From an uncultured virus (IMG/VR IMGVR_UViG_3300028591_000172) (lineage: Duplodnaviria; Heunggongvirae; Uroviricota; Caudoviricetes): DNA of 64,000 nt. The DNA lies in IMG/VR virus record IMGVR_UViG_3300028591_000172, one strand, 5' to 3'. Made by a program: the position numbers and the translations under genes. Below are positions 15,711-64,000 of this stretch, in pieces. Every line of letters begins with the position of its first letter. Position 1 is the first letter of the stretch. Under the pieces are notes generated by a model. It saw only the letters and a list, made by a program, of their open reading frames with translations. It was not told the DNA's origin and ran no database searches.

Positions 15711-15836
15711 TAGTCTATTAGACACGACATTTAGTCACCTAGCCCATAAAGCAATGTTTCATTAGACTATTTAGGTGCTTCCTAGATAGTCTTTTATTTA
15801 ATTCGTGAGAAAAAATCTCACAGAAAGGGAATTAAC

Positions 15837-30299: not shown

Positions 30300-31022
30300 A
30301 TGCCAAAAGATAAAGAAAAGATTGAAGATGTCCTTGGTGAAGAAGAGCAACCAGGATCTGGTGAAGAGAATCCACTAGAAGCGATGGATGAAATTTCGAA
30401 TGCCACACCAAGTGGTAAGAAAGGTAGTGGATCCAAGGATTTAGATGAAGACGTCGTAACAGAAATGCTTAAGACTGGCGAAAACACAGACGGTATGTTT
30501 ATACCTAAAGGTGATGAGGATCTCGAAGAAGAAGATGAAAGTGCCAAAGTTAAAGTTGGCGACAAGGTAAAACCTTCTGATAAATATAAAGATAAATTTA
30601 AAGATGATATGCTTAAGCATCCAGATGAGTATAAGCTTATGACACCACGTGGAGAAATGACCGTGGCTGAAGCACTCAGGGCTGGATATAATCCGATGAC
30701 AAAAACTTTTGATGAATCAAAAAGTCAAAAAGGAATCAAAGATAAATACATGGCGGGATTAAATGACGCCGATAGAGAAGCGATTGAAGGAATCACGTCT
30801 CCATCCACAGCACAAGTTGCTCCAGCTGATGCTGAAATGTATGGATTACCATCAGGATCTCCATTGATTCGTCAAGAACAACCTGCTCAACCTGCTATGC
30901 CAGCTGGACAGATGCCTGCACAAGGTGGAACTCCTGTTGGTGCGGCAATGCCAGGAGCAGAAGAATCAATGGCACCAGGTGGTTCACCTGATATCGCAGC
31001 GTTATTAGGAGGTGGACAATAA
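30300..31022 (+). CDS. Acidic, Pro/Gln-rich protein (possible scaffold/virion protein)
   Basis: AAGGAG RBS; low-complexity termini. Confidence 0.65.
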   Translation: MPKDKEKIEDVLGEEEQPGSGEENPLEAMDEISNATPSGKKGSGSKDLDEDVVTEMLKTGENTDGMFIPKGDEDLEEEDESAKVKVGDKVKPSDKYKDKFKDDMLKHPDEYKLMTPRGEMTVAEALRAGYNPMTKTFDESKSQKGIKDKYMAGLNDADREAIEGITSPSTAQVAPADAEMYGLPSGSPLIRQEQPAQPAMPAGQMPAQGGTPVGAAMPGAEESMAPGGSPDIAALLGGGQ

Positions 31023-38576: not shown

Positions 38577-38961
38577 AAAAACGTTTCACATTTTGAGCCA
38601 CGCTAGTTAGATAACCACTAAGTATCTTATAAATAGGATACCTAGATGGCTTATCAACATAGCCAAGATAAGTAGCAGACTCAACAGAAAGAGTATGTAA
38701 CTTATCTAATTGAACATAACTATCTGCTCGTAAAAAATAATTAGCTGCTTTAGTTAATCTAACACTATGAGAAAGATATTCCTCATTATCTTGTGAAGTA
38801 ATCTTAACACAAGTAATGTTATCATAATCAACAGCAAGGACCATAAAGAGACCACGTTGTAAGTCTCCGTTCTCAAACACCTTAACGCTCCCATTAAGGG
38901 AGACGTAAGGAGCAGAGATAATATCAAAAGGTTTTAAGACTCTATCCATAGGATTATTCAC
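38533..38961 (-). CDS. PemK/MazF-like fold protein
   Basis: FDII.APY...R..MVL....CVKITS...DSYVQLDKLHTL. Confidence 0.6.
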   Translation of the reverse strand: MNNPMDRVLKPFDIISAPYVSLNGSVKVFENGDLQRGLFMVLAVDYDNITCVKITSQDNEEYLSHSVRLTKAANYFLRADSYVQLDKLHTLSVESATYLGYVDKPSRYPIYKILSGYLTSVAQNVKRFCDPPRRKYVSPNRK

Positions 38962-41392
38962 CTCCTTTCTTAAATAAATTACTCACTTTAATAACAGTAG
39001 CGAGTGCCTGTCTAGAAAGCAAAAGCTTACCATTGCTAACAGAGAGGAACATCCTCTTGTTAACATCGGTCTTAGGGAAGAATTCACTAGGTCTAGCACC
39101 ATTAAGCCATGTGACTTTATGATCATCAAGTTTACGCAACAACTTGAGAAGATTTTCAGTATCATTACAATCGAATGATAAAGTTCCTGCTAAGAATGTA
39201 ATGAGAACTTTGTCAAGGTCAACATCAATGTCACCATTGTTATCTGAAGCAAGAGCGGTATTGAAATGTTCAATACATACATCACCAATCATAAATGATG
39301 GATGGAAGTATTCTTTACAGACTTTACATTGCTTCACATAATCAGGAAGTTCCTTAAAGTATTTAATACCAGAAGGCATAAAGACTTTAAATGCTGACTT
39401 GAAGTTGACACATGTTCCATCTTCAGCAGTAACAAAGTCATTGAGTTGTTCGACTTCGGACAAATCAAAAGACTTTGATTCGCCATCAACATTGATGGTT
39501 ACCAAATCACTTGGATGGACTTTCTTACCATTATGAATGATAAGTTCTTTAGAACATTTTGGACAAATGCCACCACGAGATGTGTGTTTACCACAAATAG
39601 GACATGTGCCACGAGTGCTACTAAAGAATGAAGAAGTCCAGCTGGTAGAACCAGCAGGTAAACCTGTATCAAATCTAGGGAATGATACAGCGTAATGAAG
39701 AGTAGGAATATATGATTGACCATCAACAATAGCACTCTTCAAATAACTTAAGGCAAAGATAGGATCATTGAATCTACCAGAAACAGGAGTAGCTTCCTCA
39801 ATAATCTTGTCAAATCCAGCAGACTCAGCAGAAACGAAACGATAACCATCTTTAGAAAAGTATTTAACTTTCCAATCCATTGTCCCATTACTAAAGTTAA
39901 ATGGAGAGAGAACTTCTTGAATAAATTCTCTAATAACTTTAGCTAAAGCAATAGACTCTTGATCTTTTGGATGACCAGGATAGAAATCATTTTGTCTAAT
40001 ACAATCTAGATTATCACCTACCCATAAAAGACATCTCTTCTTTTTAGCCCAAAGATATTGTGGAGTATCAGATAATGGTTCATAAGGAATGTAGGCAATG
40101 AAACCATTACCACACATAAATTGAAAATTACCACGATTATACATACCACTATAATCGCTACCAATACCATATCCATCTGGTAAATCGGTAAAGTTATTAA
40201 TCCAAGATTGACAACTAGACCAATTATAACCAAGAGAACAAGTGATCATATCACATGGATGAAAAGAAATAATAAAGGATTCTCTATTATAAGTTCCTTT
40301 GCAATTCTCTTGAAGTCGTGCGAAGATTTGATCAAGAGTTCCATAGTTGACTAATTCATAACCACCTTCATGACCATTAGGTCTAATCTTGATAGGAAGT
40401 TCTGAATAGAAAACAAAGGACGCTAAAGCGTTACGATAATAATTAAAATCATTATCAACAAGGCTGAATGGATTACCACTAAATCCAACTGTCAAAGCAG
40501 TTAACCAATCATAAAAACTTTTAACAAGTTTATTACAGATTGTTGTTTTGATAGGACCTCTGCCATTAGAGATTTGATTGACACGAATGCTGCTATATAA
40601 ATCAGCAAGGAAGTCATCAAAATGGTTACTAAAATAAACTTCCAAAGTAGTGAAGAATGTAGCATATCTATCACCATCATTTCTTAAAGCACTAACCTTT
40701 TCAAAAATGGAAGATGGAAGTTTATTAAATGAAATGAAAGCATTCTCATCATCAGATAATAATGAGGCAATACCTTTCATACAGAAAGCACCACGACCTC
40801 TTATTGTTTCAGAAGAAATGGAATGCTCGTCAACGAATGTGTTAATACGATTAATAGTATCAATAGAAACATAAGCATCATCATCAGTGAACTGAGTTTC
40901 AGGAGTAATGTCTCTACTTTCTAAAATCAATTCGTCAAAAGCACGAACGAAAATAGAGTAAAGAAGTGCGTGGAAACTACCAAGATATCCATCACTAACA
41001 GCAGTGAAAGGAACAACTTGTGATGGATTATAATTCCAATGGGCCCAACCACTTCTATCAAGATAATTAGGACGTGCTAATAAAGTAAGATAATCTTTCT
41101 TTGCTTCAAGAAGATTAACAGGACGCAACACTTGTTTATCAAAGTGTAAAGATAATGTGCTCCAATCCCATTCAGGTCTGAATGAGAAAGCACGAATAAT
41201 CTTATGATGATGAGACCACCATAAGTCTAAAAACGCATCAATGCCAGCATTAGATAATGTAGCATTAGCGACTTCACGACGACGTGTGAAAACGTCACGG
41301 ATGTTAGCTCTCAAAACGAGCTTCAATAATTGAGGACACTTCTCAGAATCAGTGTCAACTCTTTTGATGTTAATAATTTTAGGTTTTGCCAT
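38954..41392 (-). CDS. Large hypothetical protein with Zn ribbons
   Basis: 812 aa; ISFHPCDMITCS.G.NWSSC; several CxxC pairs. Confidence 0.75.
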   Translation of the reverse strand: MAKPKIINIKRVDTDSEKCPQLLKLVLRANIRDVFTRRREVANATLSNAGIDAFLDLWWSHHHKIIRAFSFRPEWDWSTLSLHFDKQVLRPVNLLEAKKDYLTLLARPNYLDRSGWAHWNYNPSQVVPFTAVSDGYLGSFHALLYSIFVRAFDELILESRDITPETQFTDDDAYVSIDTINRINTFVDEHSISSETIRGRGAFCMKGIASLLSDDENAFISFNKLPSSIFEKVSALRNDGDRYATFFTTLEVYFSNHFDDFLADLYSSIRVNQISNGRGPIKTTICNKLVKSFYDWLTALTVGFSGNPFSLVDNDFNYYRNALASFVFYSELPIKIRPNGHEGGYELVNYGTLDQIFARLQENCKGTYNRESFIISFHPCDMITCSLGYNWSSCQSWINNFTDLPDGYGIGSDYSGMYNRGNFQFMCGNGFIAYIPYEPLSDTPQYLWAKKKRCLLWVGDNLDCIRQNDFYPGHPKDQESIALAKVIREFIQEVLSPFNFSNGTMDWKVKYFSKDGYRFVSAESAGFDKIIEEATPVSGRFNDPIFALSYLKSAIVDGQSYIPTLHYAVSFPRFDTGLPAGSTSWTSSFFSSTRGTCPICGKHTSRGGICPKCSKELIIHNGKKVHPSDLVTINVDGESKSFDLSEVEQLNDFVTAEDGTCVNFKSAFKVFMPSGIKYFKELPDYVKQCKVCKEYFHPSFMIGDVCIEHFNTALASDNNGDIDVDLDKVLITFLAGTLSFDCNDTENLLKLLRKLDDHKVTWLNGARPSEFFPKTDVNKRMFLSVSNGKLLLSRQALATVIKVSNLFKKGGE

Positions 41393-41416: not shown

Positions 41417-42574
41417 TTAAAGTTCTTCATCAATACATTGGTTACAATGTCCACAATAAACATGGTCGTCATCTTCAAAAGGAAGATTTAAACAACCACA
41501 ATAAGGACATTGAATGTATCCTTGATTAAGGAAATCAGGGACACAATCAGGACAAATATAATCGTTGTCAGGATAAACAAGAACCATTGATTCCTTATCA
41601 ACGTGTTCACCACAGAAAAAACAACGATCAATCTTGTCATCAATATAAGGTAAATCTTTTATCAAACTAAGTTGTTCGATAGATTCATCTTTCTTTGAGT
41701 GAAAACGTAATCCAGAATGTTCATAACGATTTAAAGGATTACCATAAAAATATGACGGATATGAACGACGTTCATAAACATATCTTTCTTTAAAGATATC
41801 CGACGACAAGATGTTGTTTAATCTCTTAAGAAGATAATTTACATCTTTTACAGATACATATTCATTAGCACCAGAGTGCTCATGATAGTATCCAGAAGAT
41901 AAATTAACACCAGAGATACCAAAATGTGGCATCAAGACAGAAATATCTGAGCAACTTCCAATAGCGGATTTGAAATCAAAAGCTTCAATCGCTTTAGTCA
42001 ATGACTCGTTAGCATCAGAATAACAAACAACATCTTTGTTACCACGTCTATCGATTTGAATAAACGCATTAACATCAGACAAAAAGTCAGATGGAAAATC
42101 TTTACAGAATTTATGAGAACCAAGACAACCTCGTTCTTCACCCATAAAGAAAAGAACTGATGGACGATGACCAAGTTTAAGCATTTCTAAAATAGCATAA
42201 ACACCACATCTATCATCGCCACCAATTCCTTGTTTACTAGAAATGTAAACATCAATAATCTTTTTCTTACTGTTCAGAACAGTAGAAGGAATATATTTCT
42301 TAACATCTTGATTATAGACTCTGTCCATATGAGCACAAAGACAAACAGGCATATTGCCTTTGGCATAAATATATCCCTCTTTTGGATCCCAGAATGTAAT
42401 AACATCTTCATAACCAAAAGACTTTAGAGCATCAACATTATAATGAAACAATCCTTGTTCAGTAGAACAAAGGAGAGCAATTAATAATGGATTGATGACT
42501 AAAGATTTTGGAACGGAGTCTTTATTATATTTAATAAGAGTTAGAGTTTTATTATTGTTCAACATTGATATCAC
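41417..42574 (-). CDS. M20/M28-type metallopeptidase with C-terminal Zn ribbons
   Basis: AHMD, GGDDRCG, EERG, QIDR, GYYHEH. Confidence 0.85.
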   Translation of the reverse strand: MISMLNNNKTLTLIKYNKDSVPKSLVINPLLIALLCSTEQGLFHYNVDALKSFGYEDVITFWDPKEGYIYAKGNMPVCLCAHMDRVYNQDVKKYIPSTVLNSKKKIIDVYISSKQGIGGDDRCGVYAILEMLKLGHRPSVLFFMGEERGCLGSHKFCKDFPSDFLSDVNAFIQIDRRGNKDVVCYSDANESLTKAIEAFDFKSAIGSCSDISVLMPHFGISGVNLSSGYYHEHSGANEYVSVKDVNYLLKRLNNILSSDIFKERYVYERRSYPSYFYGNPLNRYEHSGLRFHSKKDESIEQLSLIKDLPYIDDKIDRCFFCGEHVDKESMVLVYPDNDYICPDCVPDFLNQGYIQCPYCGCLNLPFEDDDHVYCGHCNQCIDEEL

Positions 42575-50357: not shown

Positions 50358-50395
50358 AAACGGTTGTTGTCACGCAGCCGTTTTTATTTTATAAT
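50358..50395 (+). promoter_or_regulatory. Terminator hairpin with overlapping sigma70 promoter for the giant gene
   Basis: AAACGGTTG/CAGCCGTTT plus T tract; TTGTCA (50367)-17-TATAAT (50390). Confidence 0.75.
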
Positions 50396-50447
50396 CGTAA
50401 GTGATTGATGTTATCACACGTATAGAAAAATCGGGAGGGACTGATAG

Positions 50448-53400
50448 ATGTATATACCAGACGATGACGTATTAAATGTTTTAAATACGAATACACAGAA
50501 TAATAATTATAATGATGGAAATAGTTCTGATGACGAACTTAAAGTTTTAAATGATAATGCTCAAACTCAGAGTGTAAGTAATAAAAGCGGAAATATTTTT
50601 GGTATCACATTAGATGAAGATGATAATAATGCCAGACAAGCTGGTTATGTTGATAATACCGCTGGAGTTCAACACGTAGATTACGATGATGTAACTTATT
50701 TTGAGAACGAAGAAAATTTAGGTAGCCCTGTTTTAAGTAAGAGAAATAAATTCGGTGGAGTAGCAGATGTTGATGAAGGTGAAGAACCGATTATTTCTGA
50801 TATGAGCGGTGAAGAAATTTCCGCAGACTCACCAGAAAATTTATATAGAGAAATGTTAGGTGTCACACAGTATTCCGATTTAAGAAAAATGTGTGGATTA
50901 AAAGATTCAGAATCGTTTACTGATTATTATAATCGCACTGGATATATTCCTAAGGGATTTGAAACCACCGCTAGATTATTATTAGCAGAAGAAAAAGTTA
51001 AAAAAGTTTACGCCCGTTATAAAGCTGGCGAAATTGGTTATGCTGATTTTTTGTATAAAGCGTATGCGAAAGATATTTTGAAATCACAAGGTATCGATGT
51101 TAGTTCGAAATTATATTGGTATAACAAAGCGAAGAAAGGTGATTTTACTAATCCTCTTGATAGCACTACATATTTAGCAGATATATTAGCGATCGCTGAC
51201 CAGGAGTTTCAGAAAGCGTCGTGGTATGAATCAGCAAGTGTTGATAATATTGCGAAGACTGCGTTAGTATGGGCGTCCGGTGGAGCGGTTACTCCAGAAA
51301 ATATTAAGACATTATTTAAAGACCAGATTGATGTTATTAATAAATATTTCGAATCTGAAGAAGAATTTATTAAGTTATATAAAGCTGGATATATTAATTT
51401 AAATACGTTTAATCCGTTTATAGATATTGATAATGACGGTATTTATGATTACTATTTCGCAGAAGATGGTAAGTTATATGCCGCTGAAGGTAGTTCAGGT
51501 AAAGGTAATAACGTTTGTAAAATTTATTACGAAACAGATAAGAACGGAAATAAAGTTGTCGACCGTGTAACGAGAAAAGGTGTTTTCGGCACAGGCGAAT
51601 TCGGAGATATTATGGATTCGTTCTTAGGTTCGTTTTTCTCTGTGTTCACAGGTTTAGTTGATTTCGGCGGACAGATGGTTGGATTAATCGGACACGCTGC
51701 CGGTAATGATGATTTAATGTTGAACTGGAATGCTATAAGAAATAATAACTTAGCATTCGGTGGATCGAATACGAAAGATTTCCAGGGATTCCAGGCGTCT
51801 GAAGGTGATGACTGGGCACGTGGAGTTAGTAGTGCTGTCGGTACGATTGTCGGTATGATCGCATCGTATTATATTGCTGGTGTTATTAATAAAGCCGCTG
51901 GTGCTGCTGGTAAAGCTGCTTCCGCTGCGAGTAAGACAGCGATTGATACAGTTGGAAGACAAACAGCTAAATCCGTAGCTGCAAACGTAGGAGCGAAAGC
52001 GTTAGAAGGAACTGCTTGGGCTGTTAGAACTTATAACGGTTTAAGAGGTGGTAATATGACCACTGTCGTTCCTAAGTTAGCTGAACATGCTATGGCTAAC
52101 AGAATGGCGACCGCTGCTGCGTTAGCTATTCGTGATGGCGTAAGCACAGCGAATAAATTAATTATTCAAAATAAAATTTTAAAAGAAGAAGATAGATTAT
52201 CCGAAGGTGAAATTGTCGGTAGAACATTATTAAATATCGGTGCGAATACCGTTGTTTCGTTTGCGTTAAGAGCAGTCGGAGATTCCGGCGTTACAGATTT
52301 CTGGAAGAAAGAGGGAACCCACGTTAAGAATATCGCTAACAGAATTGATTTCTTAAATAAAATGGTTCCTGAATCTGTTGTTGATAATCTTGCTACCGCT
52401 GTTGGACAAGAAAAATTATCAGTTATTGGTTCGACATTATTAGGTAAAGGTATTAATACTATCGGTGATATTATCGAAAATATCGTTACACAAACTAATA
52501 CTGCGTTTTTAAGTAATGCTGAAAACGGTGTATTTGATGTTGGTAAATGGTTTGAAACCGCTGGTGGCTTAGTAGCGAATCCATCGTTTATTATTACTAA
52601 CTTATATATTGCTAAACAAGATATGGGATTTAAATTGTTTGGTAGAGATAGTGAAGGTAAACGTGTATTTAAACCTCACACTGAACAGAATTTCGTTAAG
52701 GCAGCGATTGTTGCTGGTGAAGATACAGTTAAAATGTATGATGAAGCAATGAATGAAATTAAAGGTGTATATGCTGACTTAATTAAAAATGGAAATGAAA
52801 AAGCAGCAGATGATTTAATGAGAGGAATTATTGAACCAGCAGAAAGAATATATGTTGGATCACAAGGCGAATCCACAGTTACATGTGCGATGAAAGCCTT
52901 AACATGGTTAATGAACCAAACTGTAGATATTCCTGTTGAATCATTAGTTAAAGATAAAAAGATTTTAGCCAGATTAACTCCAGATGAAAAACAAAACGGA
53001 CCAGTTCGTGCGATTGTTTTAGCTGGAATTAAAGAAGGTGCGGTTAAGAGAATGATCGCTAGAGCCGCATATACAATGGAGTATTATAATAAAGCTTACG
53101 AACAAATTTATAAAACTAGTATTGATACATTCAAAGGTGAGTTCAGTTTAGTCGATGCTTACACTAGAGCTAAAGAAAGATTTGAAGCAGAAGCTGATGA
53201 TGTTTATACAGAAGAAAAAACAGTAATGGATGAAGATGGAATCATGCATCGTGTTACTGGTGAAAAATATATTGTTGACGTTAATAAATTCTCCGATAAC
53301 GAAAGAGTAATGAATGCGTTAGAAAAAGTTGCTAAAGAAAGAGAAGCTAATTTGGTGTTCTTAACTAAGGAACAACGTGACGCTGTCATTAAAGAATTAG

Positions 53401-56400
53401 AAAATAATTTCGGAGCTGAATCAACAAATGACGTCAAACATTTCGAAGATGTTATTAATTTACAAACTGAAAACGTTGCTGGTAAAGGCCCACGTAAGAT
53501 GACATTAAAAGACCAACTTAACTATATGTTAGGTTTAGGTGGACTTAATGCTCGCTTAAGTGATGCAGTTATTAGATCAATGGCTTTCTATAAAGAATCA
53601 AGACAAGAAGATTATGAAAACCTCAGTCCTGATTTTAAAGGTGACTTCGAAAAGGCATTCGATATTGATATTGTTATGAATAATAATCAAGGACAAATGC
53701 CAGAAGAATATGAAAAGTTAGCAGTTAATGAAAGCTTCGTTTCCCGTGTTAGAGAATATGGCTATCCTGATGGTAAATCATTCTTGAACTCAGCTTATAT
53801 ATTAAAAGCTAAAGGTGACATGGTTAATGATATCAGAGCCGGTGGTAAGATGGGCTCGTTATATAATGCCATGGTTGCGTTAGCTAAAGTCGGATTAATC
53901 GCTAAAGTTGATTATAACGATGGCGGAGTTACTAAAACTTTATTTGCTGTTCCTGGTGGAATGGAAAATTTATTTGGCAGTATGAAAACAGCAGATGCTA
54001 TCAGCACAGCATTAAGCAGTGTCTATACATTATGTGTTTCTAACGATGCTAAATCATTTAAGTCTGCTAGTAATTTATTGTTACAAATATTCTTAGAAAG
54101 AAATTTACAATTACCAAACGGCAAGACCGCCAAGTCTTATGTTAAAGATTTCGTGTTTATTAATGATAGAGTTAACGCAGAAGGTGAACACGATCCAGAA
54201 ATTAATAGTAATACTGATTTCTTAAGCCATCCTAAATATAAGGAAGGCTCTGAAAAATTATTATCAACTTTATTAGCGTCATTCGCCGCTACTAATAATG
54301 ATGTAATTAGCAGACCACAATTAATTAGAATTTTTGATTCATTAGGAATCTCATATAATTCAATTGACGCATCAGGAAACGATGCCGGTATTTCATTTGT
54401 TAAGAATTATTTAAATGCTTATGAACAAACTGGTGAAGTTACTGATTTAGCTAGAAAGATAGAGGGAGATCCAGATAGGAGAGTTTCCGAGACTGACCTA
54501 AATAAATTCTCTCAAGCCACAAAGATACTCCTCTCAAATCCTGAAGTTCAAAAAGCGTTAGTTGACGACGGAATAATTAGTAAAGATTTCTTTAAGCATC
54601 TAGAGGACCTGAATTTTTTTACACGAGGTCAGTCCGGAGAAGTAAAGGAAAATTCAAGGTTCGTCTCTTTGGTGGAAGCGGCAAGATTACATCAAGGATT
54701 GGACGACTATTTAGAAAACGACAATGATCTCGTTTATTTCGCCGAGTCATTTATTAAGATGACCGATGATATAAATGGTATAAGTGGAGCTGATGACAAA
54801 CTAATTTCAGACTTACTTAACTATCGTGAATTTGTTAGAGGAACAAATGTTTACGATAAAAAGAACTTAATCATTGTTAATTTATCTAGATTAGAAACTG
54901 CCTCTCTTCATAAATTAATTAGACAATTAGAAGTTGAAACATATAGAAACGCATTAAGAGATGATAGTGCGAAAGTTTTCCGCGCTTTAGAAAAAGAATT
55001 AAGCAAGTCATACAACTTAGAATCATTACAATCGTTATGTAATTTACAATTGAATAATGATTTAGGTGTTTTAACTTTCGACTTAGATGATCCTGATTCA
55101 TATAATGAATTTAAAAATTTAATGATGAGCATAGGATATAAAGAAGTTGTCGTCGATGGAACAATTAGTGCCGGCAGAGCATATAATATTCCTGGCGTCA
55201 GTTTTACTAGTGCTGTTTCAAGAGGATTAACTTTTGATTTGTCATTAGAAAAATATAAAAACTTAATGGCCAACTCAAAGATTACAGCTGGTGAAAACGC
55301 TCTATCATTATCTGATAAAGGCAAAGCACTTGATGTTGCTTTAGCTGTATCTGATAGATATGGTTTATTATTTACTAAAGAAGAAATTGAAAACTTGTCA
55401 CTTGATGACATTGAAAATAGATTAAATATTAAATTTACTAAAGATGGTTTTGAACTTGATGGAATTAAATCCACAATTAAAGCCATACTTAAATTAGGTA
55501 AGTCGGCTTCTAAATTAGATAAATATGTCAATAGAACATATGGAAACTACTATGAGAATGTTTTCAATAATATAGATACCGATGGTAGATTCGGAAATGC
55601 TTTAACTATTTTAAATATAATTAAATCTGCTTTAGCTTTCCAAGCCGATACAGAAGAAGGAACTGCTGAAACAAATTTATATTCAGTTAAATTAAGTCAA
55701 AAAGAATTTGAAAACTTCGAAGCAAATGCTGGTAAGTTATATAAATATGTTGATGAAAAATTAAATAATGGAGTTCATAAAGTAGTCATAGCAGATATCC
55801 AAAAAGAAAACTGGACACTAGACTTCATTGTTAAAAACTTCTGTAAAGATGGAAAGATAGATATGAGAAGTATCTTTGTCTTACCTGCCGGAAGTTATAA
55901 ACCAGAACAATTATCAGAAATCACTTATAATGCTAGAACCATTAAAGTTGATGGGATGAACGCTGGTGGTGTTAACTTCTTAGAATTCATCAGAGAACAA
56001 AACTTTGATAGATTTGATGACCTTGAAGAATTCTATAACTTCATCAATAAATGTGATTTAAATATTGGTGATTATGATTCTGAAGAAAGTATAAGAAACA
56101 ATATGCTTAGTGTCATTAAAGAATACCTCACTAAAGAAACAGAACAAATTTATACATCATTAAAAGAACAAGGCTTAACTGATGAAGATATTAAGATCAT
56201 TTATCTTGATGGTGCCATAAAGAAAATATCTGAAGCTGTTAGAAATAACATGGGAGAATACACTAACTTTGGTGTAGATAGTGACGGTGTTAGCGTTTTA
56301 GAAAAGTTAGATTATTCTAAGATTTCTGAAGAATGTGGATACAGTGCAGTATCACTAAAGAGAATATTATCTCTATTAAAAACTCCAGTATTGTCATCAT

Positions 56401-59400
56401 TCGATGATGCTTTAAATATATTTATTTTACAAACTAACAATCCATTTACCGATGTTGCTTCAATGATTCGTTATGATTCTAGAACTGGTAAAGCGTTTAT
56501 AAGTTTAGATGACATTATGGTTATGACTAAAGAACAATTCAAAGTTCTTGAAGACTTAGGTCTAGTCACAAAGCAATTAAAAGATAAACTAACATTAATT
56601 GGAAAATATGATGAGAAAACCGGATTCATTTATAACGATACTAGAAATGAAGAAGGTGAAGATTTCTCTGCTGTTAGAACTACATATGATATTGGTAAAG
56701 AAACCACACAAATTCAATCAAACGGTTCTGGTTACATTCCAAATGAAAACACAGAAAAGATTGCTGATTATTTATTAACAAGAGCAAAAAGAATTAAGGA
56801 CGAAAGAAATCAAGATACTTTCTTCAAAAAACTTTCAGCAATGAATCCTGCTGATGAATCAGATGCTTGGTTAGCTAAAGCTTTGAATCTATATACAACA
56901 GGAACAGTTGATAATCCAGGTTCAAACTTAGTCGCTAACATGGATAATAGTTTAGCTGTTGGCGAAATGCTCAACAGTATTTCATCATTGTCTTTCGCTT
57001 TACAAGACACAGTTCTTCCTGATGGAACAGAACTAAAGCTAGATAAGAGAGCGGCTACTGAATTAGCCTTAAAGATTTATTTCAATACAACAGGCACAGA
57101 TATGTCTGCTTCATACAACAGATACACAATTGCTTACAAAGACGAAAACGATCAATGGCATATTGAAAGCGTTGGTGAAAATATTAACGGTGCTCGTGAA
57201 GCTGTATCTTTAGGTAGACAATTATTTATCAAAGGTATTCTTGATGGCAAAACAAAATATAAAGAAGCATACTTATTCAATTCATCGAAGAATGTTATGT
57301 CTGCTAATGCCGCATCATTCGGTGAAAATATCAAAGTGATGCAGCTTAATGAAGAAAACTTGTCATCACTTAAAAACCAAATATATGAAAACTGTTTAGC
57401 AGTAGCTTTAGAAAATGGATATTTGAAATTATCTACAGATAGTAAAGATGCTAAAGCAGATGCTATTGCTAAAGTTTTAGGTTCGGCTATTACACGCCCT
57501 GAGATAAGAACGTTCTATTTACAAAACGCTAAAGCAGATATTCTTTCTCAAGCAGACAAACTTTTAAATGGTTTGAATCCAGCTATTAAAGAATCATATA
57601 TCAATGCTATAAATAATCACGTTGATAAATTATTATCCACAACATTAGAAACTGTAGAAAATCTACAGTCATCAGCCGATTGGATGTCTTTGAAAGAACA
57701 AGCGTTAGCTACAATCAATACACAAAAAGGTATTCTTTCTAAAGAACAATTCAGATTATTAGAAGAAAGAACTAATAAGATGATCGCTGATACAATTGAT
57801 GCCTATACATATTTAATAAATCAAGACTCACTTCCAAAAGAAACATTAGGAAAAATAAATGAAATGATTGGCTTATCTAAAGATGAACTTTCCGAAATGT
57901 CTAAAGATGGTTTTGATTTAATTAAAGATGTTGAAGGTTTATATACAGATAATGAAGAATTGTTCGCAAAGAATATAGAACGTTATTTAAACGATATTAC
58001 AGATCCACAAGAAAAAGTTAAAGCTGTTGCCGCAATCTTAAGATATCACGCACTTTCAGGAGAACGTGGAAAGAATTTACAATTCGCTTTGCTTGGCAGT
58101 GATGAATACTTGAGTGGTTTAAGAGATAGTTATTTAAAAGATCCAATCAAACCAGGCCAATTCTCTGTTGATGGAAGACAATATGATGCCATTAAAGAAG
58201 TTGGTAAAGGTAAGAAGATTGTTTCATTAGACTTGGAAAACTTCTACAAAGACGTTAAAGGTGATGAAAAGATTTACGAAATTGGTTTTGCTATGTTCGA
58301 CGGCAATGATGAATTAGATTTCGACGCATCTAAACCAACTCAATATAGAATATTAATTAAGTATGATGATGAAGAATACTTAGAAGACACTATTAAAGGT
58401 TATAGAACATTGGCTTCTGATTCCACAGATTCAAGAAAGAAAGCATCATTTAAAAACTATGTCGACAATACAAATCTTACTAGAGATAGATTAGTAAAGA
58501 ATTCTGATGGACAATACATTTATGTTATTCATATTTCATCAGGAGTGAATGCTAATGAAGTATTTACCAAAGCTATAAACAAAATATTATCAATGGCAGG
58601 AAATGACTATGTTGTATTAGGTCACAATACTAAAGGTCAAGATTCTGACTTTGATAAGATTAGAAATCAATTCGGAGTTGATATGTATAAGTTACTTAAT
58701 GGAAAACTTAACATAGATACTTTAATCGATGTAGCTAAAAACGGTTATGCTACAGATGCTAAGATTAATGAATCATCATTGTCATTAGAAAACTTAGCCA
58801 AACAAATGGGAATCGAATACGACGCACACTCCGCTGTAGATGATGCTATATTCACCTATCAATATTTCTTATGGAAAATGAAAAATCAAATCGATGTTGA
58901 CAAGATGAAGTCAGGATTATATGAAGAATTCGAACACATCTTAGAAAAAATCGGAGCACAAGATATTGACAGAGATCAACTCAATAGAGAACTTTCTAAA
59001 ATCAAAGTTGATGGTCAAGAAGTTTCGTTTGCTGATTTCTGGCAAGGTGATGAATTTAAAGATACATATGAGAAGTATGGAACAAAACTTACTAGTGATA
59101 TAATTCAAAACTTAATTAATTATAGAAACGCTGTATTCAATAGCGATGAAGCTAGTTACATTAGAAAGAGAGCAACAAACGTTGAACATGATTTGATATA
59201 TGAAGCTCAATCTGCACATATAACTTGGTTATCTCACCATGATCAAAATGGTAATAGTAACTTAGATAATTTCAGAGAAAGAATCAGTTTGTTTATTAAA
59301 CCAAACGAAAATGGTCAAGTAACAAGAACTGAATATACTAACGGTATGAAGCTATTAAATTCTGTCTTCTTAGATTACAGAACAAGAAAGATGGATGGAG

Positions 59401-62400
59401 ATAGAAACTTCAGAATAGAAGATTTCTTAAGAATGGACACCGATGAAATAATCGATGCCGCAAGAAACAAACTTCCTGAATTACATATAACAAAAGAAGA
59501 ATTAACAAATTATGTTAACGCTTATACATCTTCTCAAGAATTTGAAGATAGTAAACTAACATCAGAAAAAACATTTGCTTCTAATGCTATATATAACATT
59601 TATGATGAAATAGGAAAAACTATTGGATTAGATGGTTTTGATGACGGAACAAAGATTCTCTTATTTGATATCATGTCTGGTCTTAAGACTGGTAATTTTG
59701 CCGAAGCATTTAGAACTAATGCTAATGGCCAAAAAGAATTCATTGTTAAATATAATGGCCCAGCTTACGAAAAGAGTTATTATGTTAAGTCATTAGAAGA
59801 TGCCATTAATGATTTCGCAGCATCTGTTGATGTCCAAAGAGAATGGACGATGCCTTCAGGTGTAATTCCTGGTCAAACTGTAAAATTAGAAAATGGTGAT
59901 GATTATAGTTTCAAATCTACAGATGTAGGTATGACACGTCAAAAGTTCCAAGAATTATTTGGTGGAGCAACTATTGAAGATTATAGAGAATCATTAGGAC
60001 TATCTGATGGCGATGATTTATTCATACAATTATACAGAGTTCCTGGTGTTGGACAAAACGTTATACATACATACAGAGTAAGGATATTAGATAGCAACAA
60101 ATATGATAATGTTCTTCTTGCTCATGATATATTCGCCGCATACCATAGTGGTGACTTTGATGGTGACAAAGTTATAATTTTAAAACCAACAAAGTATTTA
60201 CAAAAAGTCGGTAATCAATTAATGAATTCAACCGATAAAATATGGGAAGTTTCTGATAAGATAATTTCCAAACTATATAGCGACTCAGCTTATGATTCAG
60301 CAAGAGATGACCAAGTAGTTAATAACTTCGCAGATTACTGTGAACAAGAATTTGGCTTACAAACAACTTTACAAAAAGTTTTCGATTACGCTAGAGATTC
60401 CTCTTCAGTTAATCCAACAGAAAGAGATGCTTATGAAAAAGCTTTAGCATATGCGTTAGATCAAGAGTTAATTAACAAAGTTAACGCCAAAGAATATCCA
60501 ACCTTATCCACAGATGAGACTTCTAAACAACTTTATTATTCTGATTTCCTCACCGATAAGTATTCAGATGAAGTGGTGAGAAGACTTTCATTAGATACAA
60601 AATTCTTAATCGACCAAATTATTTCAGTTAAAGACTCAGCTACAGGTTTCGCATCTAAAAAATACAAACCATTATTAGAAGGTTTTAGAAAAACAGTAGA
60701 AAATGCCGCTGACTTATTTACATATAATCAAGTTGCTTTATCAAAAACAACTAAGTTAAGACTAGCTCAAGCTATAGAAAATGACGCCGATAATGTTTTC
60801 AAATTTATTAAACAATCAATAGGCGAAACATATTCAGCTAAAATCTTTACATCAATAGATGAATATCTTGATGACGTATTTAATGATTCAACATTATCTT
60901 CAAAACAAAAAGCACAAGGAGTTATCAATGCTTTGAAGATGGCTGAATTATTATACAGAGGAACAGATGAATTTAATGACATGTTCAATAAATTAACTGA
61001 TGACATGATTAATAATGCTGATTTATCTGACGAGAGAACTAAAGTTAAAAAGCTTATTGAATACGCTTCATATAACCAAGTTGATACTAATGGTAGAACA
61101 ATCGAAGATGTAGACAGATTGTCATTAAATGATTTAACAAATCTTAAATATAATATAGTTAATAATCTAGATCCAATGATGAGTAGCAGAAGATTCATGG
61201 CCACATCTGGAGATACACATCTATCAAGCAATATAGTAACAAACATCAGGTCACAAATTAGTAAGTTGACTGATGCTTCTAAAATTAAATATATTGACGC
61301 TGACAATTCAACCAACTGGTTTGCTCCAGAAATACTTTTAGCTACAGGAATGGTTAGAAAACTTACTCCTGATACATTTGCCGAAATAAGTGGAAGATTT
61401 ACTTTAGCAAGTTCAAGAACCGTTAATGTTAATATTGGTGATTTATCAGAAGACCAATTACCAAAACTCAGTGCTGCTTTCTCTAAACGTTTACATGGTT
61501 CGATAAAAATCGGAGACCAAGTAATAGTTAGACCAGGAGAAAAAGTTTTATCAGCAGATGATAAATATGGTAATCACTATACAAATATATTCGATGAGGA
61601 CGGTGAACTATTAGTTGACCTTAAAGATATTGTTTCTTTGAACGTACAAAAAGAAATTTCATTGTTTGGTAACAAACTAGGCATCTTAGGTTCAGGCGAC
61701 ATGAAAGGAACACAAGAACTTTCAGTTGCTCATTCAAGAAATAATTATGGTATTGGTTTGGATATAGAATCGTTAAATCAATATAGAGAATTGTTAGGTT
61801 CTTACTATTCAATAATAAATTCATTTATTGAAACAATAGAACAATCAAAAGGTAAAATACCTGGAGAAAAATTGACACAATTAAAAGATTTAAATACAAG
61901 ATTACATCAAGCATCTCAAGAACAAGCACAGCTTACAGCAGATTATAAGAAAGCTAGAGATGAATTTGATGCTGACCAAATTGCTCATGGTGAACCAACA
62001 TGGGACCAATTAGCAGCAATGTTCCGTTCAGCAAGTGAAGAAGAAAGAGATGAAATTAGATTACTACATAAATCCGTAAGTATGTTTTATCAACCAGATA
62101 TACAGAAATCTATTAATTTACAAAACTCAATCCAAGATCAAATAGATAATTTGTTATCTGAATTAGGATTCAAAAATAAAGAAGCGTTATATAAACAATT
62201 AAATGAATCAAAAGAAAAGATTCAAGAATTAAGAAGAGCAATGAGACAACAAATTGGAGAAAGACAAATTGCTCAAAGAGAAAAGAACTTACTTAAAGAT
62301 TCAGTTGATTTAAAAGAACGAACAATGCTTTATGATTTGATATCAGATATCGGAATTGATCCAGCTATGTATGATATAGACAATATGGATATCAAAGATG

Positions 62401-64000
62401 TCAGAAATCTTTATAAAGAATTTAAAAAGATTGACTATGTCGCATCAGAAAATTTACTTTCTTATGCCAAGCAAAGTGCCAATATGCCTGGATACGAAAT
62501 CATTTATCTCGATGAACACATGAATCCTATTGATGATCCAAACAAAGCTGTGTTTACAAAAATTAAATGTAGAATGTTCTGCCCAGAAGCATTTAAGTTC
62601 TGGGATACTAGTGCTGATACATCTAAAATTGACACAATCAGTTATGTCAATGATAGAACAAATCCTGATTCATTAGTTCAATTACATGGCAAATGGTATA
62701 GCAAAGCAAAAGATGGTAACGGTAATTGGGTTTACGTTTATGATTCCACGAAAGAAAATGAAATTAATAACGTAATATCAAAAGCTAATACGCCATGGGC
62801 TAGCTCAACAAATGGAACTAGAGTGTATAGAACATTGTTGGCTAAGGTACTCTATGAAAATTGTTCAGCAGCACAAGCAGAATTAAAGGACATCAATGTT
62901 TTAATGAAACAAATGCTTGATGGTAATTCTACATCAGGTTCTTTAGGTGCCGGCATTATCAATAAAATATTCACAATGATGACTGATGATGAAGTTAGAA
63001 AACTTTATACATCAGATGATCCATATATTAAATTTATTCTAAATAAAATGAGAAGCTTTATGCCTAAGCTTACAGCTACAGACGCTAAAGAATGGGCTGG
63101 CTCACAAAAATTATTATCTAAAAACAAGGCTAAAGAATTAGCTAAAAACAAAACGCTTCTTTACTACTACACAAAAGCTATTGGAAATATTTTAAATGAC
63201 CAGGCTTTCTTAAGTGATCAAGAAGCAATGAAAAACGGATATCCATTATTAGATAACTCTGATACATATTATCCATTAGAAAAATTGATTGCTGAATTAG
63301 CTACAGTATCAGGTGTCAAAGACAGTTATGTGAAATCATTCTCACATAATGTTAATGACTATACTCTTATGGGATTGCTTAACTTCGTCAATGGTAGAAG
63401 TGGCAATCAATCTAACGAATTTAATCCTCAATCAAACTGGGATAGTATTGTTTATCCAAGAAAAGAAGCAGCAATTGCTGGTCCTGCTGGAGGAAAACTT
63501 GGCGATACTGCTGAAGGTCAAAAAGGAATTACTCCAGACCAACAAATCATGTCTCAATATTACGGTGCCAATAGAACTCTTTCTGAATTATTAGGAATGA
63601 ATAAAGGAAATAATATTTCTCAATCAAGGGATAGTTTCTTACACGGTGACTTTGCTACTAGATTCACAGATGAAAATAGATCTAGAGAATTAAGCAAAGA
63701 ATATTATCCACAAAAAATGGGTGATGACCTTGCCGCTTATGCTAGCGATACTCCAAATAGATTAGCAAAAGCAAGAATGTTAACAACCAAAGAAGACAGA
63801 ATGATAGCAGATATTGCTCCTCGTTTCCTTGGTGTTGACAGTAATCTTGGTATTTCATATACATCCAAGCCACAAATGTTTGATGGAACTTATGGAGATT
63901 ATGCTAATGAAGCTACATCAGAAATCTATGGCTGGGCTAGACACGATATGATTCAACCAATAGTAGATAGTATTAAACAATCAATCGGTGACACAGAAAC
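50448..64000 (+). CDS. Giant protein (at least 4517 aa, 3'-truncated): putative virion two-barrel RNA polymerase with DEDDh exonuclease domain
   Basis: GGAGG RBS and ATG 50448; the frame read open wherever translated and the track lists no stop-terminated ORF in it; GDFDGD at 60150-60167; GNK...MKG at 61668-61709; DEDDh motifs at 58218-58860. Confidence 0.85.
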   Translation, partial: MYIPDDDVLNVLNTNTQNNNYNDGNSSDDELKVLNDNAQTQSVSNKSGNIFGITLDEDDNNARQAGYVDNTAGVQHVDYDDVTYFENEENLGSPVLSKRNKFGGVADVDEGEEPIISDMSGEEISADSPENLYREMLGVTQYSDLRKMCGLKDSESFTDYYNRTGYIPKGFETTARLLLAEEKVKKVYARYKAGEIGYADFLYKAYAKDILKSQGIDVSSKLYWYNKAKKGDFTNPLDSTTYLADILAIADQEFQKASWYESASVDNIAKTALVWASGGAVTPENIKTLFKDQIDVINKYFESEEEFIKLYKAGYINLNTFNPFIDIDNDGIYDYYFAEDGKLYAAEGSSGKGNNVCKIYYETDKNGNKVVDRVTRKGVFGTGEFGDIMDSFLGSFFSVFTGLVDFGGQMVGLIGHAAGNDDLMLNWNAIRNNNLAFGGSNTKDFQGFQASEGDDWARGVSSAVGTIVGMIASYYIAGVINKAAGAAGKAASAASKTAIDTVGRQTAKSVAANVGAKALEGTAWAVRTYNGLRGGNMTTVVPKLAEHAMANRMATAAALAIRDGVSTANKLIIQNKILKEEDRLSEGEIVGRTLLNIGANTVVSFALRAVGDSGVTDFWKKEGTHVKNIANRIDFLNKMVPESVVDNLATAVGQEKLSVIGSTLLGKGINTIGDIIENIVTQTNTAFLSNAENGVFDVGKWFETAGGLVANPSFIITNLYIAKQDMGFKLFGRDSEGKRVFKPHTEQNFVKAAIVAGEDTVKMYDEAMNEIKGVYADLIKNGNEKAADDLMRGIIEPAERIYVGSQGESTVTCAMKALTWLMNQTVDIPVESLVKDKKILARLTPDEKQNGPVRAIVLAGIKEGAVKRMIARAAYTMEYYNKAYEQIYKTSIDTFKGEFSLVDAYTRAKERFEAEADDVYTEEKTVMDEDGIMHRVTGEKYIVDVNKFSDNERVMNALEKVAKEREANLVFLTKEQRDAVIKELENNFGAESTNDVKHFEDVINLQTENVAGKGPRKMTLKDQLNYMLGLGGLNARLSDAVIRSMAFYKESRQEDYENLSPDFKGDFEKAFDIDIVMNNNQGQMPEEYEKLAVNESFVSRVREYGYPDGKSFLNSAYILKAKGDMVNDIRAGGKMGSLYNAMVALAKVGLIAKVDYNDGGVTKTLFAVPGGMENLFGSMKTADAISTALSSVYTLCVSNDAKSFKSASNLLLQIFLERNLQLPNGKTAKSYVKDFVFINDRVNAEGEHDPEINSNTDFLSHPKYKEGSEKLLSTLLASFAATNNDVISRPQLIRIFDSLGISYNSIDASGNDAGISFVKNYLNAYEQTGEVTDLARKIEGDPDRRVSETDLNKFSQATKILLSNPEVQKALVDDGIISKDFFKHLEDLNFFTRGQSGEVKENSRFVSLVEAARLHQGLDDYLENDNDLVYFAESFIKMTDDINGISGADDKLISDLLNYREFVRGTNVYDKKNLIIVNLSRLETASLHKLIRQLEVETYRNALRDDSAKVFRALEKELSKSYNLESLQSLCNLQLNNDLGVLTFDLDDPDSYNEFKNLMMSIGYKEVVVDGTISAGRAYNIPGVSFTSAVSRGLTFDLSLEKYKNLMANSKITAGENALSLSDKGKALDVALAVSDRYGLLFTKEEIENLSLDDIENRLNIKFTKDGFELDGIKSTIKAILKLGKSASKLDKYVNRTYGNYYENVFNNIDTDGRFGNALTILNIIKSALAFQADTEEGTAETNLYSVKLSQKEFENFEANAGKLYKYVDEKLNNGVHKVVIADIQKENWTLDFIVKNFCKDGKIDMRSIFVLPAGSYKPEQLSEITYNARTIKVDGMNAGGVNFLEFIREQNFDRFDDLEEFYNFINKCDLNIGDYDSEESIRNNMLSVIKEYLTKETEQIYTSLKEQGLTDEDIKIIYLDGAIKKISEAVRNNMGEYTNFGVDSDGVSVLEKLDYSKISEECGYSAVSLKRILSLLKTPVLSSFDDALNIFILQTNNPFTDVASMIRYDSRTGKAFISLDDIMVMTKEQFKVLEDLGLVTKQLKDKLTLIGKYDEKTGFIYNDTRNEEGEDFSAVRTTYDIGKETTQIQSNGSGYIPNENTEKIADYLLTRAKRIKDERNQDTFFKKLSAMNPADESDAWLAKALNLYTTGTVDNPGSNLVANMDNSLAVGEMLNSISSLSFALQDTVLPDGTELKLDKRAATELALKIYFNTTGTDMSASYNRYTIAYKDENDQWHIESVGENINGAREAVSLGRQLFIKGILDGKTKYKEAYLFNSSKNVMSANAASFGENIKVMQLNEENLSSLKNQIYENCLAVALENGYLKLSTDSKDAKADAIAKVLGSAITRPEIRTFYLQNAKADILSQADKLLNGLNPAIKESYINAINNHVDKLLSTTLETVENLQSSADWMSLKEQALATINTQKGILSKEQFRLLEERTNKMIADTIDAYTYLINQDSLPKETLGKINEMIGLSKDELSEMSKDGFDLIKDVEGLYTDNEELFAKNIERYLNDITDPQEKVKAVAAILRYHALSGERGKNLQFALLGSDEYLSGLRDSYLKDPIKPGQFSVDGRQYDAIKEVGKGKKIVSLDLENFYKDVKGDEKIYEIGFAMFDGNDELDFDASKPTQYRILIKYDDEEYLEDTIKGYRTLASDSTDSRKKASFKNYVDNTNLTRDRLVKNSDGQYIYVIHISSGVNANEVFTKAINKILSMAGNDYVVLGHNTKGQDSDFDKIRNQFGVDMYKLLNGKLNIDTLIDVAKNGYATDAKINESSLSLENLAKQMGIEYDAHSAVDDAIFTYQYFLWKMKNQIDVDKMKSGLYEEFEHILEKIGAQDIDRDQLNRELSKIKVDGQEVSFADFWQGDEFKDTYEKYGTKLTSDIIQNLINYRNAVFNSDEASYIRKRATNVEHDLIYEAQSAHITWLSHHDQNGNSNLDNFRERISLFIKPNENGQVTRTEYTNGMKLLNSVFLDYRTRKMDGDRNFRIEDFLRMDTDEIIDAARNKLPELHITKEELTNYVNAYTSSQEFEDSKLTSEKTFASNAIYNIYDEIGKTIGLDGFDDGTKILLFDIMSGLKTGNFAEAFRTNANGQKEFIVKYNGPAYEKSYYVKSLEDAINDFAASVDVQREWTMPSGVIPGQTVKLENGDDYSFKSTDVGMTRQKFQELFGGATIEDYRESLGLSDGDDLFIQLYRVPGVGQNVIHTYRVRILDSNKYDNVLLAHDIFAAYHSGDFDGDKVIILKPTKYLQKVGNQLMNSTDKIWEVSDKIISKLYSDSAYDSARDDQVVNNFADYCEQEFGLQTTLQKVFDYARDSSSVNPTERDAYEKALAYALDQELINKVNAKEYPTLSTDETSKQLYYSDFLTDKYSDEVVRRLSLDTKFLIDQIISVKDSATGFASKKYKPLLEGFRKTVENAADLFTYNQVALSKTTKLRLAQAIENDADNVFKFIKQSIGETYSAKIFTSIDEYLDDVFNDSTLSSKQKAQGVINALKMAELLYRGTDEFNDMFNKLTDDMINNADLSDERTKVKKLIEYASYNQVDTNGRTIEDVDRLSLNDLTNLKYNIVNNLDPMMSSRRFMATSGDTHLSSNIVTNIRSQISKLTDASKIKYIDADNSTNWFAPEILLATGMVRKLTPDTFAEISGRFTLASSRTVNVNIGDLSEDQLPKLSAAFSKRLHGSIKIGDQVIVRPGEKVLSADDKYGNHYTNIFDEDGELLVDLKDIVSLNVQKEISLFGNKLGILGSGDMKGTQELSVAHSRNNYGIGLDIESLNQYRELLGSYYSIINSFIETIEQSKGKIPGEKLTQLKDLNTRLHQASQEQAQLTADYKKARDEFDADQIAHGEPTWDQLAAMFRSASEEERDEIRLLHKSVSMFYQPDIQKSINLQNSIQDQIDNLLSELGFKNKEALYKQLNESKEKIQELRRAMRQQIGERQIAQREKNLLKDSVDLKERTMLYDLISDIGIDPAMYDIDNMDIKDVRNLYKEFKKIDYVASENLLSYAKQSANMPGYEIIYLDEHMNPIDDPNKAVFTKIKCRMFCPEAFKFWDTSADTSKIDTISYVNDRTNPDSLVQLHGKWYSKAKDGNGNWVYVYDSTKENEINNVISKANTPWASSTNGTRVYRTLLAKVLYENCSAAQAELKDINVLMKQMLDGNSTSGSLGAGIINKIFTMMTDDEVRKLYTSDDPYIKFILNKMRSFMPKLTATDAKEWAGSQKLLSKNKAKELAKNKTLLYYYTKAIGNILNDQAFLSDQEAMKNGYPLLDNSDTYYPLEKLIAELATVSGVKDSYVKSFSHNVNDYTLMGLLNFVNGRSGNQSNEFNPQSNWDSIVYPRKEAAIAGPAGGKLGDTAEGQKGITPDQQIMSQYYGANRTLSELLGMNKGNNISQSRDSFLHGDFATRFTDENRSRELSKEYYPQKMGDDLAAYASDTPNRLAKARMLTTKEDRMIADIAPRFLGVDSNLGISYTSKPQMFDGTYGDYANEATSEIYGWARHDMIQPIVDSIKQSIGDTE

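Follow-up and report, generated by a model that had tools for sequence, protein, structure and literature searches.

What does the gene that closes a 64,000-nucleotide (nt) stretch of DNA from an uncultured Caudoviricetes virus (IMG/VR record IMGVR_UViG_3300028591_000172) encode, and does its product contain the active site of a cell-type RNA polymerase (RNAP)? This whole stretch is referred to here as the window. Its last gene, on the + strand and beyond a switch of strands at around 48.2-49.2 kb, consists of a giant open reading frame (ORF) that runs off the window end. A sequence-only reading had proposed that the ORF encodes a single-chain virion RNAP with both catalytic barrels of the multisubunit enzymes, in which the beta'-like barrel of the DFDGD loop (barrel A) precedes the beta-like barrel of the catalytic lysines (barrel B). 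Our analysis suggests, with moderate likelihood, that the product is a virion-delivered giant protein with a two-barrel RNAP core and that it represents an undescribed family.

The giant reading frame, its family and its DFDGD block

The claim of a giant, unbroken ORF held. The frame at 50448..63998 comprises 4,517 open codons, and the other two + frames contain 333 and 714 stops over the same stretch. The complete product is present in the protein database (P0002; 5,771 amino acids [aa], 647.6 kDa, encoded on a 78,398-bp contig), and its residues 1-4517 are identical to the window translation. All five motifs quoted in the sequence-only reading lie where it placed them, namely IQLYRVP at residue 3193 (nt 60024), GDFDGDK at residue 3235 (nt 60150), PDTFAEISGRF at residue 3641 (nt 61368), IKIGDQVIVRPGEKVL at residue 3686 (nt 61503) and GNKLGILGSGDMKG at residue 3741 (nt 61668). 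The Escherichia coli motifs set beside them are likewise real: VLLNRAP...AAYNADFDGD occurs around residue 460 of rpoC, and NFEDSILVSER and GDKMAGRHGNKG occur at residues 812 and 1063 of rpoB. The label "unannotated" was fair because residues 1-4517 reach the cut-off of no Pfam family and match no PHROG family at E≤0.01.

Short contigs that are 95-99% alike to parts of the ORF were found in goat and bovine gut metagenomes from three other studies, with a net change of 3 nt as the sole listed indel; therefore, close variants of the giant ORF circulate in ruminant guts. A sheep-gut sequencing run contains the whole stretch and is possibly where this DNA came from. The sequencing runs listed for the giant ORF sequence include no RNA run. 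One contig, X5, joins position 50627 to 55373 and omits 4,745 bases, with 20 letters on the shorter side of the junction, and this arrangement is probably not meaningful.

The giant protein belongs to a family with eight further members (P0003, P0004 and L001-L006), all of which are giant phage proteins of 2,913 (cut) to 5,917 aa. A search of 5.8 billion protein clusters returned only two other matches, P0003 (5,917 aa, 43% identity) and P0004 (5,525 aa, 33%), and pattern scans added the viral contig L001, whose ORF encodes 5,870 aa, together with L002-L006, five contigs from metagenomes; the ORFs of these five span 2,913 to 5,443 codons, and three are cut at contig ends. No family member was found among 185,579 species genomes, and a search for shorter homologues of residues 3100-3900 returned none. 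Longer homologues were also not found with a profile of the barrel A alignment described below (A3), which is weak evidence in that the proteins searched were limited to 467-2,000 aa. Against 50,697 phage records, tblastn gave no match for residues 3001-4000, for the barrel region of L005 or for the N- and C-terminal modules, and a search of phage records at the DNA level was likewise negative.

Gene order is conserved around the family. In all five loci that include its 3' end, the giant gene is followed by the terminase large subunit gene (at most 4 nt away or overlapping) and then by the portal gene, an order that fits the virion role proposed for the protein. On the 77-kb contig of a relative, the giant gene is followed by terminase and portal, then by a 210-aa ORF, the major head protein and the tail fibres, and none of the 18 ORFs scanned on that contig matched a sheath, tube or tape-measure protein. 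The terminase of this relative shares less than 30% identity with every terminase from an isolated phage. From this gene order and terminase divergence we infer a podophage-like virus whose lineage has no cultured members. A reading of the giant protein as a tape measure was rejected; the gene stands before the terminase, outside the tail block.

Modules common to distant members were mapped by BLAST and a sliding profile, which delimited an N-terminal module (residues 122-742), an exonuclease-type module (~2591-2801), the DFDGD core (~3046-3306), a block at ~3990-4200 and a C-terminal module (4731-5735). The DFDGD core is by far the strongest block shared between the two subgroups of the family (18-62 bits in four of four comparisons), and the next-best conserved is the block at ~3990-4200 (7.6-22.7 bits in four of four by sliding profile).

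The DFDGD core carries the residues that define barrel A of known enzymes. Ruprich-Robert and Thuriaux describe eight residues as invariant across all two-barrel RNAPs (PMC2919709). The barrel A signature consists of R446 and P448 of Rpb1 followed, 30-45 residues on, by the triad D479/481/483 (PMC2919709). All five of these positions (R, P, D, D and D) are present in the giant protein, with a comparable spacing of 39 residues to the triad. In A3, an alignment of seven sequences that are 20-53% identical to the window protein, R3197, P3199, H3207, Y3209, H3233, G3235, D3236, F3237, D3238, D3240, K3241 and P3247 are invariant in all seven. The loop itself reads H-[SG]-G-D-F-D-x-D-K, of which DFDxD is kept in all nine giant ORFs and the glycine of DFDGD is replaced by serine in four members.

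Comparisons with sequence collections point to the same family of enzymes. The A3 profile drew six matches at E≤10 from PDB sequences, five of which are RNAP largest subunits (E 0.37-1.5), among them the African swine fever virus RPB1 homologue (E 0.37) and an archaeal A' subunit (E 1.5), with alignments that run from R-x-P across DFDGD to the P that follows. PF00623 (RNA_pol_Rpb1_2) was the sole Pfam family matched in more than one member (two of seven; best E 0.0013, below the 25.3-bit cut-off), and in full-length L005 it was the third of three weak families listed (E 0.014, also below cut-off). Alignment to E. coli beta' with hhalign placed the block on residues 447-493 (pairwise E 0.037, probability 1.4%). 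A Smith-Waterman comparison of residues 3185-3275 with the whole of beta' landed on residues 449-490 at NADFDGD with a z of 5.9, and none of 500 shuffles scored as high. In a language-model search of the core, the nearest named cluster was the RNA-dependent RNA polymerase (RdRP) family PF05183 at 0.85, which is a lead only (<0.9). No match to PDB sequences was obtained by phmmer with residues 3000-4100. According to Chaban et al., many RNAP families have no significant similarity to one another beyond the DxDxD region (PMC10770324).

We also predicted the structure of residues 3100-3800 with AF2 from a three-sequence alignment (model 1), which yielded a mean pLDDT (predicted confidence score) of 55.5. 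Strands at 3191-3197, 3206-3214, 3221-3226 and 3242-3245 surround the DFDGD loop in a half-barrel pattern, with pLDDT values there of 35-66; the model begins at residue 3100, and its first 39 residues (3100-3138) fall below 50. Taken together, the invariant catalytic residues, the predominance of RNAP largest subunits among the PDB matches and the placement on beta' suggest that the DFDGD segment behaves like a beta'/Rpb1 catalytic barrel, which it matches only weakly. On this point the earlier parallel with beta' was borne out, at scores below threshold.

A candidate second barrel and the order of the barrels

Barrel B of the known enzymes contributes one acidic and two basic residues to the active site, which are D837, K979 and K987 in Rpb2 and D709, R738 and K743 in Qde1 (PMC2919709). 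Every member of the giant-protein family has a counterpart of the GNK...KG motif, found by eye, in which a lysine and a hydrophobic residue are followed by a second lysine 10-11 positions on. This lysine pair lies 448-551 residues after DFDxD in nine of nine proteins. In a motif-anchored alignment, K3743 and K3753 are invariant (7/7), and D3718, some 25 residues upstream, is kept in six of the seven sequences. The pattern K[ILV]x8-9K[GVSLN][TE] occurs one to three times per protein and is found at the expected place in eight of nine.

The second family-wide conserved block stands directly behind the lysines, although an insertion of ~220 residues intervenes in the window protein and in those members most closely related to it. 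Upstream of barrel A, at -420 to -140, which is the position of barrel B in known single-chain enzymes, no collinear conserved block was found save one 13-bit match in L005 at -200..-60. In model 1, helices of the linker between the two regions (residues ~3430-3510) have pLDDT values of 75-85 and a beta-rich segment at 3652-3738 has values of 74-83; the lysine loop is at ~25. Fold searches with model 1 (Foldseek against PDB and BFVD; VIA, 48,161 chains) returned only helical or unrelated matches and no RNAP, at the low pLDDT of this model. The insertion splits the candidate second domain of the window protein, and therefore the compact version of L003 was folded from seven sequences (model 2), which gave a mean pLDDT of 35.9 and was unusable.

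Several results weigh against a two-barrel polymerase, and they are collected here. The parallels to beta drawn by the sequence-only reading downstream of DFDGD do not exceed chance: residues 3630-3770 score a z of 0.33, and 176 of 500 shuffles reach that score. PDTFAEISGRF and IKIGDQ..., which had been read as beta motifs, are conserved in close relatives only. The lysine motif was picked post hoc by eye, and the sliding profile did not detect the window containing it across subgroups. Profile comparisons were also negative, as hhalign found no match to E. coli beta with either A5 or A8, PDB profile searches with A2 and A5 gave no RNAP, A10 gave only summed tetratricopeptide-repeat artefacts and Pfam beta families were not found in seven members. 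For the protein as a whole, all RNAP-family matches fall below curated or usual significance thresholds, and phmmer with residues 3000-4100 against 1.84 billion representatives recovered only the query itself. A search of 14 intergenic gaps for early promoters yielded, as 11-mers present in at least three gaps, only the ribosome-binding-site-like word AGGAGGAAAAG and an A/T-rich word. The order of the barrels is a further difficulty. We found no published precedent for A-then-B, because barrel B precedes barrel A in the known single-chain two-barrel enzymes (PMC10770324, PMC2919709).

From these results, the claim of "both barrels" stands for the DFDGD signature and does not extend to the second barrel, for which profile and fold comparisons found no beta-type barrel and the parallel to beta is at chance. 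We treat the downstream lysine domain as a candidate barrel B, on the strength of its conserved residues and their position. The reversed order is possible but unproven; if the protein is a two-barrel RNAP, we regard the chances that barrel A comes first as evenly balanced.

Explanations for the giant protein

We favour a virion RNAP because the gene lies in the packaging/head operon and because two published precedents exist for such fusions. Under this explanation, the giant protein would be made late with the packaging and head proteins and loaded into the capsid, from which it would enter the host by ejection together with the DNA. Residues ~3120-4145 would form the catalytic centre of a two-barrel (cell-type) RNAP, in which the DFDGD loop on the beta'-like barrel would bind the catalytic Mg2+ and the downstream beta-rich domain would supply one acidic residue and two lysines (D3718, K3743 and K3753), as the beta/Rpb2 barrel does. 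Such an enzyme could transcribe the first phage genes without host RNAP. The N- and C-terminal modules each contain one transmembrane (TM)-like hydrophobic segment (the C-terminal one at 5322-5346; Table 1), whose positions are conserved in homologues by hydropathy, and these modules may serve packaging, ejection or membrane passage. The exonuclease-type module may act on nucleic acid ends at entry. A fuller proposal is that the family is a new kind of virion RNAP in which beta'-like and then beta-like barrels share one chain and are coupled to a DnaQ-type exonuclease in an ejected protein of podophage-like viruses from the ruminant gut; we put this forward tentatively, as a possibility that we doubt somewhat more than we believe.

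The sub-threshold scores of the RNAP matches and the fold searches that returned no RNAP would also fit a giant internal-core, ejection or "polyvalent" virion protein that lacks polymerase activity and in which DFDGD is exapted, an inactive remnant or another metal-binding element. Capsid-packed phage polyvalent proteins have been described as a class (PMC5512222), over 80% of the giant chain has no recognisable domain, and the N-terminal module, which has no Pfam, PHROG or phage tblastn match, gave weak leads (<0.9) to the polyvalent-protein domains LPD22 (0.87) and LPD14 (0.85) in a language-model search of the ESM Atlas. However, an inactive remnant would not hold R, P, H, D, D and D invariant at 20-53% block identity. 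The DFDGD block is moreover the best conserved of the whole 5,000-6,000-residue protein, and the independent best matches are all RNAP largest subunits, exactly at the catalytic loop. We therefore consider a protein without polymerase activity unlikely. If DFDGD is instead a real polymerase barrel, its partner could be located in another part of the chain or have diverged beyond recognition, in a B-then-A or other layout, with the lysine motif a coincidence of a lysine-rich protein. The B-then-A order of all known single-chain forms (PMC10770324, PMC2919709) favours such a layout, as do the post hoc choice of the motif, its absence from the sliding profile across subgroups and the failure of profile and fold comparisons to support the downstream domain. 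Yet the region at -420 to -140 offers no collinear conserved block beyond the single L005 match, whereas the downstream block is found in four of four comparisons, and a lysine pattern this rare recurs at the same relative place in eight of nine proteins. A partner outside the downstream domain thus seems rather unlikely.

A further alternative was raised because no DNA polymerase was recognised in the window: the two barrels could serve DNA synthesis or priming, as in PolD, with the exonuclease as proofreader. In enzymes of the DEDDh class, the motifs are named Exo I (D-x-E), Exo II (N-x(n)-D) and Exo III (H-x4-D). The module in the giant protein lies ~450 residues upstream of DFDGD in most members, and its D, N, D, H and D residues are invariant, in DEDDh order, in seven aligned sequences. 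Its profile matches are weak, with Pfam RNase_T at E 0.007 (17.3 bits against a cut-off of 24) and, among PDB profiles, the PolC exonuclease domain at E 0.04 and other 3'-5' exonucleases mixed with unrelated matches of equal rank. None of the 62 window ORFs was recognised as a DNA polymerase by Pfam or PHROGs, despite a replication region (17105-48191) with helicases, a D5 primase, single-stranded DNA-binding protein (SSB), Erf and nucleases, and PolD shows that a DNA polymerase, too, can be a two-barrel enzyme (PMC7281927, PMC4996933). Against this, the giant gene sits in the packaging/head operon and outside the replication block, the exonuclease module is missing from P0004, the missing polymerase could be encoded by the unannotated ORFs (812 and 658 aa) of the replication region, and the loop reads DFDGD, as in RNA polymerases. 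A role in DNA synthesis is accordingly highly improbable in our judgement, and a virion-delivered two-barrel RNAP is the explanation that we carry forward.

To our knowledge, virion-packed two-barrel RNAPs occur in only a few phage groups (crAss-like, P23-45-like and jumbo), each of which was found through little beyond the DxDxD loop. The present family would be a further and very rare lineage, with nine proteins in the 5.8 billion clusters and the contig collections searched, and it would be one of animal-gut phages that are not crAss-like. If the RNAP explanation is correct, the core of a cell-type polymerase has been fused into giant ejected proteins repeatedly, and the protein would offer a compact, host-independent transcription enzyme for study. 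An A-then-B order, if true, would be opposite to that of QDE-1, the YonO-like enzymes, gp66, gp96/gp64 and the beta-beta' fusions of the cited papers, and could have arisen by circular permutation of a single-chain enzyme or through ancestors of beta' and beta having fused independently. Reversed barrels that work with a fused exonuclease would bear on the relationship between single-chain and multi-subunit polymerases. Should the DFDGD block prove inactive, the family would still be an uncharacterised class of 0.6-MDa virion proteins. Our literature search found neither the family nor an A-then-B single-chain enzyme; it extended to the portions of PMC10770324 other than its 23 RNAP-family alignments, which may contain the family.

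Neighbouring features and comparison with known systems

The features of the giant gene and its 5' flank are collected in Table 1. The promoter-like site before the gene matches a sigma-70-like consensus at 11 of 12 positions, which is a consensus match only. The second family-wide block (~3991-4144) has no PDB or Pfam relative.

Table 1. Coordinates of features in and immediately before the giant gene, in nucleotides of the window.
Feature	Coordinates	Strand	Basis or remark
Giant ORF	50448..64000	+	Residues 1-4517 of 5,771; ~3.8 kb more beyond the window
Terminator-like hairpin (50358-50383), overlapping promoter-like site TTGTCA-17-TATAAT (50367-50395)	50358..50395	+	Consensus scans only
Ribosome-binding site GGGAGG 8 nt before ATG 50448, with in-frame TAG immediately 5'	50433..50450	+	Sequence reading
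N-terminal conserved module, residues ~122-742, with Gly/Ala-rich hydrophobic stretches and TM-like segment 462-481	50811..52673	+	BLAST: L002 E 7e-101, L004 E 6e-47
DEDDh (DnaQ-like) 3'-5' exonuclease-type module, residues ~2591-2801 (VSLDLENFY; LGHN...DSDFD; HSAVDDA)	58218..58850	+	Motifs, weak profiles
Conserved core with DFDGD loop, residues ~3124-3271, candidate double-psi barrel A	59817..60260	+	Alignments and profiles
Mostly helical region between candidate barrels; invariant D3396, G3400 (K-D-S-x-T-G motif) and R3504	60261..61367	+	Model 1, A7 columns
Beta-rich candidate second catalytic domain, residues 3641-3770; D3718, K3743, K3753	61368..61757	+	Model 1 strands, anchored alignment
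Coiled-coil-like insertion, residues ~3771-3990	61758..62417	+	Only in window protein and closest relatives; absent in L002-L006
Second family-wide conserved block, residues ~3991-4144 (PEA..FW, ID.IS..NDRTNPDS, NG.R.Y..L); invariant E4047, N4122, L4130	62418..62879	+	

The window as a whole is phage DNA. By Pfam and PHROGs it encodes a collagen-like tail fibre (721-3291), BspA-type leucine-rich repeat (LRR) proteins and two SNF2/ResIII helicases, as well as a VRR-NUC nuclease, a PD-(D/E)XK exonuclease, SSB, Erf, a D5-type primase, GroEL and an M28 peptidase. Neither of the two long ORFs of the replication region mentioned above, one at 38954-41392 on the minus strand (812 aa) and one at 31022-32998 (658 aa), matches any family or PDB sequence. 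The GroEL-type chaperonin and the M28 peptidase, which has a ClpX-type zinc finger, are encoded at 33722-35245 and 41417-42574. A tail-side region (11024-16244) carries cargo that is unusual in phage, comprising two BspA-type LRR proteins, an LplA/B-like lipoate-ligase domain (12451-13035), a 448-aa AgrB-domain protein (13037-14383) and a protein with a BclA C-terminal domain (15837-16244). The sequence-only reading supposed a Bacillota phage, for which the only hints are the AgrB, BclA-C and BspA-LRR domains and a G+C content of 29-40%. Beside its tail genes, the contig of one relative carries two adjoining radical-SAM-domain genes (L011 17199-19132; G001 contig 57196-59132).

The R-x-P ... 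NADFDGD ... P-x4-Q ... LM.ST elements of beta'/Rpb1 are collinear with R3197-x-P ... HSGDFDGD ... P3247 ... Q3252 ... LMNST of the giant protein. In contrast to the beta'/beta enzymes, the giant protein is a single chain, in which no other Rpb1/Rpb2 domains and no significant similarity to beta were detected. For the QDE-1/YonO-like enzymes, homology is limited to a small bipartite active site of eight invariant residues (PMC2919709), of which the giant protein has five firm and three candidate counterparts; it gave no match to the Pfam RdRP family. In QDE-1, D709/R738/K743 precede R962/P964/D1007-1011 (PMC2919709), which is a B-then-A order, whereas the giant protein would be A-then-B.

Two other kinds of large phage protein share its size or mode of delivery. 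The catalytic domain of the N4 virion RNAP is T7-like and not two-barrel. No sequence similarity between the giant protein and the N4 enzyme was found, and T7-like polymerase Pfam families gave no match at E≤1 in residues 1-4517 or at E≤0.05 in nine homologue pieces. The N4 enzyme nevertheless resembles the giant protein as a giant (~3,500 aa), ejected protein of a ~70-kb podophage with flanking ejection domains (PMC13434306). The polyvalent proteins of Iyer et al. (2017) are likewise very large and multi-domain, occur in phages with terminase and portal genes and are thought to be capsid-packed and injected (PMC5512222). Of the domains named in that paper, the giant protein contains none by Pfam thresholds and shows only the weak language-model leads described above.

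The nearest parallels are virion RNAPs with two barrels. With a length of 2,180 aa, gp66 of phi14:2, a crAss-like Cellulophaga phage, is a smaller protein than the giant protein, which is thus 2.6 times longer. Like the giant protein, gp66 (PDB 6VR4) is very large, has a DFDxD loop and is highly diverged from cellular RNAPs, and it is a single-chain two-barrel virion RNAP that carries out early transcription (PMC7886860). The giant protein shows no similarity to gp66-like or other catalogued phage families in the PHROG search of residues 1-4517 (E≤0.01) and the tblastn search of residues 3001-4000. It differs from gp66 in its DEDDh module, in its position directly before the terminase gene and in its candidate lysine domain, which follows the DFDGD barrel, whereas that of gp66 precedes it; moreover, judging from gene content only, the host of its phage is probably not one of the Bacteroidota.

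The second parallel is gp96 of the Thermus phage P23-45, a 5,002-aa virion protein in which a two-barrel RNAP with a DFDGD loop is fused to membrane-active and other modules, and whose RNAP came to light solely by its DxDxD motif (PMC10770324). Comparison of A3 with gp96 residues 327-1124 by hhalign gave no meaningful match, and phmmer gave a weak alignment at the motif only. The two proteins also differ in arrangement: gp96, encoded within the tail module, is the tape measure and has an N-terminal, B-then-A RNAP with DFDGD at 779-783 (PMC10770324), whereas the giant gene precedes the terminase in five of five loci and encodes a putative RNAP core in mid-chain, with DFDGD at 3236-3240. Taken together, these comparisons suggest that the giant protein probably joins a known kind, the virion-delivered two-barrel RNAP within a giant protein, as the representative of a family that is itself undescribed.

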